This document shows positions 3,255-55,471 of a stretch of DNA of 64,000 nt, piece after piece. The translations under genes were made by a program, and so were the position numbers. The stretch's first letter is position 1. Each line of letters begins with the position of its first letter. The notes beneath the pieces were generated by a model. The model made no database searches. It was not told where the DNA came from and saw only the letters and a list, made by a program, of their open reading frames with translations. The DNA lies in the IMG/VR virus record IMGVR_UViG_3300027740_000040, positions 8,139 through 72,138 of that record, one strand, 5' to 3'. The stretch is from a virus.

Positions 3255-3468
3255 CCTGACCCCCTACCAGTTCTCGGTCCTGCGCGCCTGCCCGGACCAG
3301 CCGGGGGCGCGTTTCCCGAGCTCGACGAAGGAGGTGATGGCTCTCGATGCTCTCACCACGCGGGGGCTCGTGCGGGCGATACCGTGGGACCGCCGGAGTG
3401 GCGACGCGCGCGTCCACGACACATCCTGGCAGAGGACGCCAGCGGGAAAGGAAGTGGCGAATGGGTGA
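3247..3468 (+). CDS. small winged-helix-like protein, paralogue 3 of 3
   Basis: ATG at 3247; near-identical termini to 1718-1939. Confidence 0.75.
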   Translation: MPDLTPYQFSVLRACPDQPGARFPSSTKEVMALDALTTRGLVRAIPWDRRSGDARVHDTSWQRTPAGKEVANG

Positions 3469-5113: not shown

Positions 5114-5374
5114 ATGACCAACGCGACGACGATCGAAAAACTCCTCGCCCTTGAAGACGAGCAGACCCGCACGGAGGCCGCTCGCCAGGTCGCCAAGGCC
5201 GCGCTGGCCGCCGACCCGGACAGCGACGCTCTCTACGACGCCGAGGACGCGGCGGGAGAGGCCGCCAAAGCCGCTCGCAAGGCGTTCGATGCGGCATTCT
5301 CCGCGTTCGCCCGCGAGTGCGGCTCGCAGTCCCGCGCCAACGACCTACTCCGCGCCGCCCGCTGCGCACGGTGA
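5114..5374 (+). CDS. small Ala-rich helical protein
   Basis: First gene after promoter A1. Confidence 0.75.
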   Translation: MTNATTIEKLLALEDEQTRTEAARQVAKAALAADPDSDALYDAEDAAGEAAKAARKAFDAAFSAFARECGSQSRANDLLRAARCAR

Positions 5375-5393
5375 AACCGTTCCTCCCGCTCCA

Positions 5394-5420
5394 GCCCCGC
5401 AGGTCGTCAGACCCCGGGGC
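5394..5420 (+). other. conserved intergenic RNA hairpin (CA/Y internal loop), copy 1
   Basis: GCCCCG-CA-GGTC-gtca-GACC-C-CGGGGC just upstream of an RBS. Confidence 0.65.
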
Positions 5421-5443
5421 CTGATGCGTCGGAGGAACCCGCC

Positions 5444-5668
5444 ATGACGATCCGCATCGAGGTCAGCACCGAGTCGCTGGGGTACGAAATCGCGACGGCC
5501 GCGAACGTCGAGGACTACTGCACCTGGGCCGACGATTGGTTCGGCGAGAACTATCCCGACCTGGACGTAGAGCACGTACCGGGCCCCGGCGGCAGTCGTG
5601 GCACCGACGTCTACGAGGCCGAGCAGGAGTGTTTCGAGGCGTGGTGCGCGGCTGGTGCGCAGGGGTAA
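5444..5668 (+). CDS. small acidic protein
   Basis: GGAGG RBS; 74 aa, D/E-rich. Confidence 0.75.
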   Translation: MTIRIEVSTESLGYEIATAANVEDYCTWADDWFGENYPDLDVEHVPGPGGSRGTDVYEAEQECFEAWCAAGAQG

Positions 5669-46289: not shown

Positions 46290-46740
46290 CGGCCGGTTTC
46301 AGATCGCTTCCTTCGGCAAAACGGACCTCCAGCATGGCGATGCGCCTGGCGAGCTTCCCTACCCCTGCCGCGACCTCCGAAACCGACACCAGGACCAGGC
46401 GATCGCCGGCTGCCATCTCCGACCGTATTCCGACGAGCTCCTCCTGCACCACTTCTCGAGCTACCTCCTCGGCCTTGCGATCGACGTCCCGCAGGTGGGC
46501 GGAGATCGCTTTCCGCAAGTCGTCGCGTTCCGTGTCCTCGTCGAATAGACCCGGAGCGTATCGGTGCAGTTGTGCCAGCGTCACCCGCCACCGGAGCCGC
46601 TTCTCCCCCGTCCGCACCCCGATGCGACGACCCACCCTTCGTTCGGCGGCGAGGAGGATCCTCTTGAGCTTTTGGCAACCGAATGGCCCCAGCTTCAGCA
46701 TCCGCGCCGCTTCGGGCAGGGTCATCAGTTGCTCGGCCAT
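46282..46740 (-). CDS. excisionase/MerR-like HTH protein with coiled coil
   Basis: LMTLPEAARMLKL HTH start; TGATG overlap. Confidence 0.65.
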   Translation of the reverse strand: MAEQLMTLPEAARMLKLGPFGCQKLKRILLAAERRVGRRIGVRTGEKRLRWRVTLAQLHRYAPGLFDEDTERDDLRKAISAHLRDVDRKAEEVAREVVQEELVGIRSEMAAGDRLVLVSVSEVAAGVGKLARRIAMLEVRFAEGSDLKPAGD

Positions 46741-47879
46741 CAGCACCCCCCCAGCGCCAGTCTGACCTTCTCGCGAAGCTCCTCGCTGGAGTCCATGGCC
46801 ACCCGCGAGAGTCCGATGATCTCAGCGAGCAGTACCTCCTTCTCGGCATCGGGCGGCGCCTTGATGCGGGCTCTCCTGGGCGCTGGTCCGTCGCGCCGCG
46901 CCTTCCTGGGTCCGACTTCGGCCAGCCACGCCTCGACGGACTCGTCCCGCAGATCCTCGGCCTCGTGCCGAGCGTCGGTCAGCAGGGAGCCGGTCCGGAT
47001 GTCGGGGTTGTTCTGCTGCCGCTCCCGGACTCGGTCGAGCACGGCATCCGGACTCGGCGCGTCCGAATACTCCTTGGCGTGCTGATTGACGAGTCGTTTC
47101 CCGGTGGTCGTCAGCGCCAGCAGTCCCGCGACCCCGCAGGCGCCGGGTCCGTAGAGTCGAGAGAGGACGGCGACTCGGAGGTAACCGCGATCGCTGCCGC
47201 TGCGAATCCGGAGCAGTCGCGAATCGACTCGCCCGATCTGCTCGGCCTCCGACTCCCCCATCCCGATCCCAGTGCTGCCGTGCTTGCTGGAACCAGTAAT
47301 GTTCGCGTCGAGTGGCCGCAGCCGTTCGAGTGGCGACGGGATCCAGCCGCGCCCGTGGCAGGCCCCGCACCACTCAGTGACGACTGCCTTCGAGTCGCGG
47401 GACAGGTTCGCGATCTCGACCCGGAGCGCGTCCAGTTCCTCGTCGCCGAGTGCCCGCGCCTCTACCACGGCCTCATCGGCGATTCGGTTCGCGTGCTCGA
47501 GCCGGTACGCCTCTGCCTCTCGATACGCGGTCCAACGGTCGCGGGCGACGGATGCCCGATCCATCAGCACCCGGTAGGCCACCAGGTGCGGGATCCGTTT
47601 CGCGCGGACTCGCAGGTCCTTCATGTCGGCGACCACGTGGGCGCGGTGCGTGCAGTCGAGCGCCTGCGCCTCGTCGCTCTTGGTGCGCATCCGCTCGGAC
47701 CCGTCGAGTCGCCCGACTCCGCCGCAGACCGGACACCGACGCGAACGCCCGTAGCGCGCCATGCGGTCAAGCATGGGACCGAGATCGGAGGCGGACAGAC
47801 GGTCGAAGGTGCGGCCGCAGAAGTAGGCGATCAGGTCCTTGATGTCCGGCTTGTCGAGACGAGGTCGGGTTGCTCTCAT
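46740..47879 (-). CDS. zinc-finger putative late-transcription regulator (Q-like position)
   Basis: CPVCGGVG and CGACHGRG motifs; last large gene before terminase. Confidence 0.45.
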   Translation of the reverse strand: MRATRPRLDKPDIKDLIAYFCGRTFDRLSASDLGPMLDRMARYGRSRRCPVCGGVGRLDGSERMRTKSDEAQALDCTHRAHVVADMKDLRVRAKRIPHLVAYRVLMDRASVARDRWTAYREAEAYRLEHANRIADEAVVEARALGDEELDALRVEIANLSRDSKAVVTEWCGACHGRGWIPSPLERLRPLDANITGSSKHGSTGIGMGESEAEQIGRVDSRLLRIRSGSDRGYLRVAVLSRLYGPGACGVAGLLALTTTGKRLVNQHAKEYSDAPSPDAVLDRVRERQQNNPDIRTGSLLTDARHEAEDLRDESVEAWLAEVGPRKARRDGPAPRRARIKAPPDAEKEVLLAEIIGLSRVAMDSSEELREKVRLALGGC

Positions 47880-47992: not shown

Positions 47993-48553
47993 CTACGCCG
48001 CCTTCTTCTCCAACTCCTTCTTGAGCTTCGCGTTCTCGCGCGTCAGCCGCGCCACCTGGGTCCTGAGCTGGGCGTTCTCGCGGGTTAGCCTGTCGATCTC
48101 GGTGAGGCGCCCGACGTCTCGCGGAACCTCTTGTCGTGGATCCACCTGTCGGAGCAACCGCTGCGATGCTTGCAGCGAGGGTCGCACTCCTCCGCGCGCA
48201 TCCGAGAAGGCGTCGACCGCCCGCACGAACGCCGGAACCCGATCGCGATCCCTAGTGTTCGCCAGCGCTATGACGGGGTTCGCCCCCAGCCGCTCCGCTT
48301 CCTCCTCGCCGACCAGTCCGACGCCCTTCTTGAAGTTCTCGAAGCGGGCCACGTCACACAGGTCGTGCGACTTGAGGAACTGGGCGAACGTTCCGATCCC
48401 GCACGCCTCCAGCAGCGACATCTGCTCTGCCTCGACCCGCCGCAGGTAGAGGAGGAATCGCGCGTCCGCCTCCTCCTTGCTCTGCCGCAGTGAGCGGGCC
48501 TCGGTGACGATCTCGTTCAGTTTCTCTTCGTTGCTCTTCTGCTTCTTGGACAT
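47993..48553 (-). CDS. hypothetical protein with C-terminal coiled coil
   Basis: ATG at 48553; its RBS lies in the partial CRISPR repeat. Confidence 0.8.
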   Translation of the reverse strand: MSKKQKSNEEKLNEIVTEARSLRQSKEEADARFLLYLRRVEAEQMSLLEACGIGTFAQFLKSHDLCDVARFENFKKGVGLVGEEEAERLGANPVIALANTRDRDRVPAFVRAVDAFSDARGGVRPSLQASQRLLRQVDPRQEVPRDVGRLTEIDRLTRENAQLRTQVARLTRENAKLKKELEKKAA

Positions 48554-48557
48554 TTGG

Positions 48558-48577
48558 TTCCTTTCCTCACGCATCGC
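48558..48577 (-). repeat. partial (20-nt) CRISPR repeat copy containing an RBS
   Basis: TTCCTTTCCTCACGCATCGC identical to the repeat core; abuts the last full repeat. Confidence 0.85.
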
Positions 48578-48754
48578 GCTCTGCATTCCTTTCCTCACGC
48601 ATCGCACCACGGCTCGACCACGAACTACGTGGACGGGTCGGAGCTCCTCCGCTCTGCATTCCTTTCCTCACGCATCGCACCGTCACAACCCAACGGAGAA
48701 TCAGGAAGATGACAACGACCTCCGCTCTGCATTCCTTTCCTCACGCATCGCACC
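48577..48754 (-). CRISPR. mini-CRISPR array: three repeats (36, 36, 32 nt) and two 37-nt spacers
   Basis: Repeat CCTCCGCTCTGCATTCCTTTCCTCACGCATCGCACC (+) at 48719-48754 and 48646-48681, 4-nt-truncated at 48577-48608; unique spacers 48609-48645 and 48682-48718; period 73. Confidence 0.9.
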
Positions 48755-50357
48755 TGCCCTCCGAGGCTCGGCGCGATTTCGATGGGTTACGCGACGCTTT
48801 GCGAGCGCCTCCTTTCTTGGTTCTGCCCGGCTCCCCGGCGGGGCCTTGTTTCTGCTGATCTGCCTCACGCACCACTTCGCCTCTCGCCTCCGGGCTTGCG
48901 AACCCCGTCTCGATTCCGAACAGCTTGTCCCACGCGCTCATGTTGGCGCCTGACCTGCGCAGCATGTGCAGCACCGCCACGAAGTCGGCCGGGCGCTCGT
49001 ACCCGCAAGCTTGGCAGTGGAACACCCCGGTACGGGTGTTGTGCTGACCGTCGTGCACGTTGCAGCACCGCGGGCATTCGGTGCTGATGTACTCGGACGA
49101 CACCTCGTCCAGCGGGATCCCATCCTTCCGCAGCGCCCACGCCACCGCCGTCTTCAACTCGGCGAGCGGGAATCGGTCCACGAACCTCCGAACGTTGCGA
49201 TCGTCGCTCGGCTGAATGCCGCCATGGTCCTCGATGAATACCCGGCCGCACCCCCACTCGCGGCAGAGTTTCGCCACCGCGGCGGCGAGTTGTTGACACT
49301 TCGTGTGATTGAAGCGCGCCAGGTAGTCGCCGAGTCGCTCGTAGGTCGCGAAACGTCGATCTCTCCCGTGCCCCTTCGCGCCGCTTCCGCGCTCCGACTC
49401 GACGATTCCCTTCAACTGCCGACGCCGCGCCTCGAGCGACCGCCGCATCGCTAGGTACTTGTTCCCGCGGTCCAGGTATCGGAACTTACCGGTGCTGCTC
49501 ATGGCCGTCAGCCAGTTGTGCTGACCACGGTGCACAACGAGGACGTTCGCCGCGTTGAGCTTGGTGGGTGCCGGCTCCGGCTCCGAGTAGGCGATGATCG
49601 CGTACCACTTCCGCCTACGCTCGTCGTACACGATCTTGAGCGCACCGCGCTTGACCGAACCATCTGCAATCTCCCGAAGCTTCGCCCAGTGGCTACCCTT
49701 CGACGGCGCCAGGCGCGCGAACCAGTATTCGATCACGTCCGCTCCGCCATCCTTGTTGGATCCGAGCGCGATCTTCAGGGTCACCCCGTGCGCGTCCGCG
49801 ATGACTCCTGACTCGTTAGCTCGGTTAGGGATGGGCGCTCCTAGCTTGTAAGATGGGATTCGCGTCCGCTTGCCGTCCTTCGTCCACTTCTTCAGCTTTC
49901 GCTCCACCTCGCGAGCCACATCCGACATCATACCGGCGTGGCATTCAATCCCGTTCGCTTTCGCTACCTGCCTAGCCATCTGGTAGGCGCGAGCCTTCCC
50001 GTCTAGGTCGAACAGTTCCTTCCCCGAGTGCTGCTCGAGCAGCACGTTCAGCAGCGTACCGTTGTAGATGTGGTGCATCGCCGACCGGTAGCGACGAAGC
50101 TCGGTGCCAAGCTCGTCCCACGTGCGCCCTATCGGCGCCACGATCTCCACCCGAAGCGCCTTGGTGATCAGAGGAACCTCGCAGTGGACCGACGAACGGC
50201 GGAATGCAGAGCTCTCGGAATCCTTCGGACCCGAGAAGACCGAGGCGGACGAACCGCCCCGTTTGCGAGCGGACTTGCCCTCGCATCCGGGCCCCGGAGT
50301 AGGCCCATTATTGCTCTCCGCTCGTCGGCCCGCTGCGGGGCCCTTCTGTTCCTTCAC
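48741..50357 (-). CDS. cas12f: Cas12f (type V-F)-like effector with RuvC-I Asp-to-His substitution
   Basis: Colinear motifs with AsCas12f1 as recalled: TKALRVEIV-P...W-ELGT-LR, IPSYK, YDERRRKWY, GHGRDRR, GCGRVFIED, CPRC/CQAC, ADF. Start is GTG 50357 (GAGGAGG RBS) or CTG 50171. Confidence 0.85.
   Translation of the reverse strand: MKEQKGPAAGRRAESNNGPTPGPGCEGKSARKRGGSSASVFSGPKDSESSAFRRSSVHCEVPLITKALRVEIVAPIGRTWDELGTELRRYRSAMHHIYNGTLLNVLLEQHSGKELFDLDGKARAYQMARQVAKANGIECHAGMMSDVAREVERKLKKWTKDGKRTRIPSYKLGAPIPNRANESGVIADAHGVTLKIALGSNKDGGADVIEYWFARLAPSKGSHWAKLREIADGSVKRGALKIVYDERRRKWYAIIAYSEPEPAPTKLNAANVLVVHRGQHNWLTAMSSTGKFRYLDRGNKYLAMRRSLEARRRQLKGIVESERGSGAKGHGRDRRFATYERLGDYLARFNHTKCQQLAAAVAKLCREWGCGRVFIEDHGGIQPSDDRNVRRFVDRFPLAELKTAVAWALRKDGIPLDEVSSEYISTECPRCCNVHDGQHNTRTGVFHCQACGYERPADFVAVLHMLRRSGANMSAWDKLFGIETGFASPEARGEVVREADQQKQGPAGEPGRTKKGGARKASRNPSKSRRASEGRCDA
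50190..50345 (-). ncRNA. tracrRNA candidate
   Basis: 12-nt anti-repeat at 50201-50212; 5-nt anti-repeat CTCCG in a hairpin loop at 50295-50299; several stem-loops; ends approximate. Confidence 0.55.
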
Positions 50358-50382
50358 GCTGTCCTCCTCGCTCTCAACCTGC

Positions 50383-54493: not shown

Positions 54494-55471
54494 TCAGATC
54501 CGTTCCTTGCGCGTCAGGTATCCATCGCCGTGCATCTTGAGGATGACGCGGCCCATGTGCTCGACTCGCTCGTGTGTCGGCTTCACGACGAACCCCTCGC
54601 GCACATGCCCGGCGAGCGCGCTGGGTCCCTCCGACCATTCAGCGATTCGCTCCGGGTCCCATGGCCCTTGGTACAGGATCGGCACCCACGGCAGGCCGCA
54701 CGACGCGGCAGTCGCGCGCGCCGGCTCGTCGTCGAGGTAGCGCCCGGTCGTGCCGTCGAACACGTCGAAGATTCGGAGGTCGACGCCCGCGATGCCGTAG
54801 TGGAGATCCTGGACCTTGCCGAACACCTCGCCGAAGAACACGCGCTTCGGGAACCCGCGCAGCCGCTGCTCGATCTCGCACAGCCTCGCCACCGTCCACC
54901 ACGTGTTGTTGTCGTTATCGCGCTTGATCCGGTTGTGCGATCCGACCCAGAGCCGCTCGCCATCCCAGGCGTATCGCGCGTTGCAGCCGTGCAGCTTCTC
55001 GGTCACCAGCACGGGCTCCCCAGGTTGCAGCACGTTTCGATGCCGGCGCAGTGGCTCGATGTCCGTGTACGTCGGAAACAGCCAACCCTCGGGAGCCGCC
55101 TCGTCCTCGCCTCCACTGTGCACTCCGCCGCGCTGCGCCTCCGGATCCCAATGCGTGACCCCGAGCGCCTCCGTGACGTCATCGCCCTCCTGTGTGCCAT
55201 CGGGCGCCGGAACCAGCAGTCCCATCGAGAACACGCCACGGAGCCGCTTCGCCCTGATGCGCGGTCGATCCAGAAACGCGAACTCCGGGCGCGCGAGCTC
55301 GACCACCGAATCGACGGGCAGGTAGGCAGCGAGCGAACCAGGTTGCCAGTCGCCCAGCCGCACGCACACTGGATACCCGCCGTGCACCATCACGATCCCG
55401 AGCGCGTCCGCGTTGCCATGCGGCTCGATCGCTCCGATCCGAACTACCTCTACTCGTGCTTCGCTGCTCAT
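54494..55471 (-). CDS. RNA ligase (Rnl2-like, DRB0094 family)
   Basis: N-terminal I..HGNADAL module; TEKLHG (motif I), FGEVFG, LRIFDV, REGFVVKP, VILK. Confidence 0.88.
   Translation of the reverse strand: MSSEARVEVVRIGAIEPHGNADALGIVMVHGGYPVCVRLGDWQPGSLAAYLPVDSVVELARPEFAFLDRPRIRAKRLRGVFSMGLLVPAPDGTQEGDDVTEALGVTHWDPEAQRGGVHSGGEDEAAPEGWLFPTYTDIEPLRRHRNVLQPGEPVLVTEKLHGCNARYAWDGERLWVGSHNRIKRDNDNNTWWTVARLCEIEQRLRGFPKRVFFGEVFGKVQDLHYGIAGVDLRIFDVFDGTTGRYLDDEPARATAASCGLPWVPILYQGPWDPERIAEWSEGPSALAGHVREGFVVKPTHERVEHMGRVILKMHGDGYLTRKERI

Follow-up and report, generated by a model that had tools for sequence, protein, structure and literature searches.

A Cas12f1-type tracrRNA lying in frame within the gene of a phage-encoded, probably non-cutting Cas12f-like effector

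The locus studied here raises two questions: which RNA guides a TnpB/Cas12f-like protein encoded by a soil virus, and why the best candidate for that RNA lies inside the protein's own reading frame. The virus record (85.7 kb, 66% GC) includes terminase, portal, DnaB-like helicase, and RNA ligase genes, and the genes neighboring the effector are phage genes; the window analyzed here is a 64-kb part of that record. On the minus strand, to which all window coordinates below refer, the order is candidate RNA, TnpB/Cas12f-like open reading frame, CRISPR array, and a gene for a protein of 186 residues. The original prediction proposed a tracrRNA of Cas12f geometry at 50190-50345; it missed that the RNA is in frame inside the effector gene, that the RuvC-I aspartate of the effector is replaced, and that there is a companion gene.

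The interval 50171-50346 (~175 nt) folds into the layout of a Cas12f1 tracrRNA (z = -5.7; none of 200 shuffles as stable), in which a closing or head-to-toe stem of 25-30 bp surrounds four hairpins. In order, the RNA consists of the 5′ arm of the closing stem (50318-50346), where compensatory changes in helix 1 add to the evidence of the fold; a 5-nt mimic of the repeat (50313-50317); stem 1 (50289-50306), whose 6-nt loop (50300-50295) forms a pseudoknot with repeat positions -2 to -6; stem 2 (50264-50285) with its invariant GCGAG/CUCGC base; stems 3 (50242-50260) and 4 (50213-50236), the latter also marked by covariation of internal pairs; a 12-nt anti-repeat (50201-50212) complementary to repeat positions -6 to -17; and the 3′ arm of the closing stem (50171-50200). 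Both repeat-pairing segments that had been predicted, the anti-repeat at 50212-50201 and CTCCG (50299-50295) in the loop of the hairpin 50306-50289, are present, as are the other predicted stems, at 50285/50264, 50260/50242, and 50236/50213. The two segments do cover 16 contiguous repeat bases, with the qualification that they overlap at position -6 (12+5-1) and that the last repeat base faces an A.G mismatch; and the interval first proposed omits the 3′ arm of the closing stem, which extends to ~50171. When ten homologues, the window included, were combined into a covariance model, it matched a single place across the 64 kb and also recovered the RNA in held-out loci; Rfam has no relevant family for it, and across the interval a DNA run was free of differences. 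Just 5′ of stem 1, most members have a short repeat copy that is paired with half of the anti-repeat until a crRNA binds; opening it would cost ~5 kcal/mol in the window against -24 for the crRNA duplex, and 0-7 kcal/mol across members against -17 to -26, these being constrained energies, as nested cofolding cannot represent a crRNA duplex within the closing stem.

Protein and contig searches yielded about 20 loci with the same RNA: the closing stem is there, a 6-nt loop caps stem 1, and stem 2, additional hairpins, and an anti-repeat follow. Across 14 array-bearing homologous loci, the pseudoknot loop and an anti-repeat of 11-13 nt both vary with the repeat of their own locus. Specifically, i) loop positions 2-6 and repeat positions -2 to -6 are Watson-Crick partners in 65 of 70 cells, with double-sided changes at loop positions 3, 4, 5, and 6 (permutation p ~3e-4, or 0.002 after thinning to eight repeat-end types), and the loop thereby tracks the repeat ends GGAG, GAAG, CGGG, GCAG, GAGA, and GAAA; ii) four loci examined later (L049, L050, L052, and L058) fit the same pairing, and the held-out L058 varies position 2 as well; iii) the anti-repeat, which pairs repeat positions -6 or -7 to -17 across loci, matches its cognate repeat with a score reached in none of 200000 permutations, the cognate duplex being 11-13 bp long in 10 of the 14 loci and shorter or bulged in 4; and iv) 14 of 24 internal pairs show double-sided changes (0 of 500 shuffles, and far fewer in slid controls). 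Related sequences inflate such p-values, though the repeats are very divergent. Covariation thus demonstrates, at the level of comparative sequence, both the structure of the RNA and its pairing with the repeat; and because that covariation is repeat-matched, the tracrRNA identity, the two-segment Cas12f geometry, and the reading of the array on the minus strand, all of which had been predicted, are well supported. We conclude that the RNA is, almost certainly, the tracrRNA of a phage-encoded type V-F1-like system.

The array itself (48573-48754) is small, with three 36-nt repeats (48719-48754, 48646-48681, and a degenerate last copy at 48573-48608) and two 37-nt spacers (48682-48718 and 48609-48645); it adjoins the effector gene, whose stop codon (48741) lies within the first repeat, and tnpA is absent. 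The last repeat is partly duplicated (48545-48608), and the duplicate supplies the ribosome site of the companion gene. Cas1 was not found in the virus record, which is 77% complete, and a search for a sigma-70 promoter gave no match. A conserved leader-like motif with phased AA steps (48776-48807) stands ~55-60 nt before the first repeat and precedes the arrays of 8 loci (elsewhere at L003 1813, L006 4515, L008 6150, L013 5300, L026 2512, and L052 4649); it begins with a copy of the 3′ arm of tracrRNA stem 2, might serve as a site for a protein or offer another partner for pairing, and in the closest relatives is coded within the C-terminal tail of the effector, a low-confidence tail in the window. 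Some relatives have unusual arrays: in L026 (2560-3520) the 5′ half of the repeat differs freely from copy to copy, and only the 16 nt at the 3′ end, those that pair with the tracrRNA, are constant; in L035 (4600-5300) and L036 (4600-5250) short half-repeats, GGGAG...GGAGG or GGAAGG...GCAGG, and equally short spacers make up very irregular arrays; and L007 carries the tracrRNA and the cas 3′ end in two copies (2720-2915 and 5320-5454), probably the terminal repeat of a circular contig.

The effector (538 residues; 48741-50357) is a WED/REC/RuvC/zinc-finger protein homologous to AsCas12f1 and within the 400-550 residues of that group. Its closest solved proteins are AsCas12f1, OsCas12f, and SpCas12f1, and Cas12f1 is the best match by sequence (E 8e-30 for the single sequence, 1e-50 for the profile) as well as by fold; the guided_TnpB score of 98.4 falls below the cut-off of 100. 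It has a C4 zinc finger and, in place of an intact D-E-D RuvC triad, the triad H276/E376/D458, in which His276 aligns with the RuvC-I aspartate of AsCas12f1, the residue that is alanine in 7WJU. Among 142 full-length proteins the RuvC-I residue is H in 95, R in 26, N in 12, K in 2, L in 1, and D in 6, the last six forming a separate clade; the RuvC-II glutamate is kept in 117, the RuvC-III aspartate in 129, and the zinc finger is kept as well. A GenBank member, Virus Rctr197k, contains the whole locus, annotated just as a transposase-like protein and CRISPR; no relative was found in GTDB genomes. In Cas12m2 an HDD triad abolishes cutting, and the histidine accompanies loss of one metal (PMC10442227). 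Because the RuvC-I aspartate is replaced, and Cas12m2 offers a precedent for histidine in its place, we consider it likely by analogy that the effector binds DNA without cutting it; a cleavage-based test may therefore read negative even if the tracrRNA works. Two relatives have unusual surroundings: in L050 (2501-5226) the relative, whose tracrRNA is in frame, has cas1 as the next gene and an array with repeated spacers, and the P0028 locus, in which an imprint of the tracrRNA lies in the N-terminus, is downstream of Csf3-like and PAPS-reductase-like genes, suggesting a type IV-B-like neighborhood.

The system is a variant of type V-F1, so classified because the effector lacks the D-E-D triad while the RNA has the testable features of a Cas12f1 tracrRNA. 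Like AsCas12f1, SpCas12f1, and Un1Cas12f1 it combines a pseudoknot stem with a 6-nt loop, stem 2, an anti-repeat duplex, and 36-nt repeats, and it matches the layouts described for the tracrRNAs of SpCas12f1 (pseudoknot plus head-to-toe stem; PMC12255294) and Un1Cas12f1 (5-bp stem with a 6-nt loop; 10.1101/2020.12.22.424058). It differs from them in that the RuvC-I aspartate is replaced across the clade; the tracrRNA lies inside or under a reading frame, whereas a 2026 preprint describes Cas12f without such an unstructured tail (10.64898/2026.03.27.714800); the anti-repeat is just 11-13 nt long, and the 5′ half of the repeat may drift, as in L026; and a conserved companion gene is present and no cas1 was found in the contig. 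In Cas12n (type V-N) and TnpB the scaffold or omega RNA also overlaps the effector reading frame and codes for a disordered tail (PMC12216341), at the 3′ end (PMC12216341; 10.64898/2026.03.27.714800); in our system the RNA sits 5′, after the ribosome site and before the protein core, so that excision would remove the start, and such overlaps are seen repeatedly, in several different registers and also as small open reading frames of their own. The C-terminal tail of our effector contains the leader-like motif and the first repeat, not a tracrRNA as does that of Cas12n, and the split tracrRNA and the multi-spacer arrays of relatives set the system apart from IS200/IS605 TnpB. Cas12m2 (type V-M), which silences by DNA binding (PMC10442227), shares the histidine in place of the RuvC-I aspartate, but Cas12m uses a crRNA alone, whereas a covarying tracrRNA is present here, has another REC architecture, and is a weaker fold match (Foldseek ranks 24-29). 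The dCas12f-sigmaE and TldR proteins are nuclease-dead descendants of Cas12f and TnpB, some with a dedicated partner gene (10.1101/2025.06.10.658880; 10.1101/2023.11.30.569447; PMC10691335), and the sigmaE-linked clade has lost its array and fused its RNA (PMC10691335); our system retains both its array and a separate tracrRNA, as well as the glutamate and the RuvC-III aspartate, and its partner is no sigma factor. Cas12r, Cas12p, and MvCas12m resemble our system as phage-borne compact effectors with an array; Cas12r needs no tracrRNA (10.64898/2026.04.20.719267), and MvCas12m, in which no tracrRNA was found, has a D-E-D triad and lacks cas1/2/4 (10.64898/2026.09.14.751636). In the open-access literature we found no tracrRNA described as lying downstream of the ribosome site but ahead of the core within its own Cas gene, no report of tracrRNA translation conserved in shifting frames, and no report of this clade.

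The tracrRNA lies in frame within the effector gene as its first 62 codons, which are predicted to encode a disordered tail. A Shine-Dalgarno sequence (50369-50363, -11.6 kcal/mol) leads a GTG start codon (the pair spanning 50355-50369) whose first base, 50357, is 11 nt before the closing stem, and from this GTG the effector frame has no stop until 48741. The fusion is in one register in the window, L003, L004/L026, L013, L033, L035, and L054, and in another in L050 and L052; in a quick tree without bootstrap, fused and unfused loci are interleaved, the former occupying at least five separate branches. Several comparisons suggest that the frame is used: i) L004/L026 have no ATG, GTG, or TTG between tracrRNA and effector core; ii) indels among the window, L003, and L026 are 6, 6, 12, and larger multiples of 3, whereas those of the unfused L001, where the frame ends in stem 3, break frame; iii) frames open through the RNA occur in all three registers, as Cas fusions, as leader peptides (those of the unfused L010 and L006 end 1 and 12 nt before the cas start), or coupled to an upstream stop; iv) a start led by a Shine-Dalgarno sequence and open through the RNA is found at 10 of 20 loci, as against 2 in antisense and 1.7 in shuffles, counts to be read knowing that five fused loci were chosen via their proteins and that the loci share ancestry; and v) each of the eight tracrRNAs located after a gene has an ATG at -1 to +11 of a stop, and the frames, which use all three registers and encode unrelated peptides, are open to the anti-repeat, a test that just 28 of 130 of the phage's own long open reading frames pass. 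In L049 the cas stop is a few bases upstream; in the held-out L058 the frame of the coupled ATG ends 11 codons in, and an overlapping GTG frame alone reads through. A looser test, in which 19 of 20 loci are open from the 5′ edge of the RNA to the anti-repeat, was superseded by these stricter ones because its antisense control (12 of 20) showed it to be too lenient. From such patterns we think it likely that the window tracrRNA is translated in frame, and it looks as though translation itself, rather than peptide sequence, is under selection.

How might one RNA serve as both message and guide scaffold? Probably a single minus-strand transcript carries ribosome site, tracrRNA, effector, array, and companion gene, and each copy would have one of two fates, depending on which prevails, the initiating ribosome or the 25-30-bp closing stem. 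A ribosome that starts 11 nt ahead of the stem would melt it and produce Cas12f with a dispensable disordered tail; an untranslated transcript would fold the stem into a likely substrate of RNase III, the probable enzyme for such a cut, which would free the tracrRNA and deprive the mRNA of its start. In this way the amount of protein relative to tracrRNA would be set by translation, which may also open the closed ring so that crRNA displaces the internal repeat mimic. The assembled complex would act, as Cas12m2 does, as an RNA-guided roadblock to transcription or replication on the genes of the host or of rival elements. On balance we lean toward this explanation as a whole, with its translated tracrRNA in a Cas12f gene, two-fate transcript, and non-cutting complex. 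We wish to stress that regulation of RNA biogenesis by translation is a tentative part of it, somewhat more doubtful than not; and that a still broader picture, a widespread phage clade of nuclease-dead Cas12f1 repressors in which tracrRNA is mRNA, assembly of the guide complex is gated by translation (as self-limiting Cas expression, or as a switch thrown when host defense halts translation), and host genes are silenced with the help of a DNA-binding companion, is speculative and on present evidence rather unlikely.

Other readings of the open frame have to be set beside this one. The RNA could be an ordinary non-coding Cas12f1 tracrRNA in a 5′ leader, its frame a by-product of GC-rich stems, with the effector starting at the near-cognate CTG at 50171; this codon has a Shine-Dalgarno sequence of its own (-7.1) and coincides exactly with the start of the AsCas12f1-like core, the tail before it has a pLDDT below 50 and no conserved peptide, and GC-rich hairpins are often stop-free, as the antisense result of the looser test illustrates. 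L003 likewise has a strong Shine-Dalgarno sequence before an ATC, and both loci could start past the RNA, skipping it. The far stronger ribosome site at the GTG, the want of a standard downstream start in L004/L026, the frame-preserving indels, and the excess of led and coupled starts nevertheless make a purely non-coding leader improbable. If the frame is read, translation might merely keep a polycistronic phage transcript covered by ribosomes against Rho polarity or early termination, with no switch. Such a role would need only some register and no particular peptide, as is observed, and would account for translation being retained even where the RNA sits after the cas gene and before the array; yet the start lies consistently ~0-15 nt from the closing stem, where an initiating ribosome competes with it, and strongly folded RNA is a poor substrate for Rho. 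We regard this anti-polarity role as rather unlikely.

Nor need the effector be inactive: it could be a nuclease or nickase with a rearranged H-E-D site engaged in ordinary phage-versus-phage interference, given that the RuvC-II glutamate, RuvC-III aspartate, and zinc finger are kept, that conserved altered RuvC sites may retain activity (PMC10691335), and that relatives have long, diverse arrays, one of them with cas1. The RuvC-I position, varying among H, R, N, and K, does not behave like a catalytic residue, and this variation, the Cas12m2 precedent, and a weak match of an L007 spacer to a cellular polyketide-synthase-like gene render cutting unlikely. Least credible of all, and in our judgment very nearly dismissible, is the idea that there is no functional RNA and that the complementarity arose by chance or is left over from a decayed fourth repeat; the exact match is just 12 nt long and lies in 66% GC sequence, but ~0.006 such complements are expected by chance within ~4 kb, and chance would hardly produce locus-specific covariation of both segments and of the internal stems across divergent phages. 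Splicing out of the tracrRNA by the phage RNA ligase was set aside as well, the open frames making it unnecessary. A gene for such a ligase (PHROG 968; 54494-55471) lies 4 kb upstream of the system.

The companion gene (47993-48553) encodes 186 residues predicted to be all-helical with a C-terminal coiled coil (model pLDDT 91), and 11 distinct related loci have a helical homologue of 180-250 residues, likewise with a C-terminal coiled coil, adjacent to either the effector or the array. Foldseek gave no match to the fold of the companion at E up to 0.001, SopB/ParB appearing as weak matches, and a search via VIA returned coiled coils alone; its atlas neighbors include DUF3102-like clusters, and a DNA-binding role is a lead. 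A 379-residue gene of no known family with CxxC motifs (46740-47879) lies between the companion and the small terminase, in a position like that of a late regulator.

Exact 18-20-nt scans of the window's spacers against viral and genome collections gave seed matches alone, which did not extend (21-26 of 37 nt), no self-target was found in the contig, and a BLAST match to Burkholderia phage KS14 was rejected, being mostly repeat sequence. Among relatives, the arrays of L026, L007, and L010 have no phage matches. A strand bias of spacers (42 of 68 antisense, p 0.07) is not significant. One L007 spacer (3303-3337), which translates as ketosynthase/thiolase-like, is weakly similar to a polyketide-synthase-like gene of cellular origin (91% over 35 nt, E 0.005), and the translation of an L027 spacer resembles a sigma-54 activator motif; as pointers to host targeting both are weak.

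Taken alone, the tracrRNA is a textbook example of the Cas12f1 kind; its genomic context is not. If real, translation through it would be a new layer of CRISPR control, and errors would be possible both in tracrRNA searches limited to intergenic sequence and in the start codons assigned to Cas12f. The clade offers ~20 naturally matched pairs of tracrRNA and repeat that differ in pseudoknot sequence, as well as compact Cas12f scaffolds, probably dead ones, that could be used in CRISPRi or base editing, and it makes the role of phage-borne inactive type V systems directly testable. Outside the window, a short sequence recurs every 30 nt at both ends of the record (G000 C1 ~50-130 and 85550-85680).
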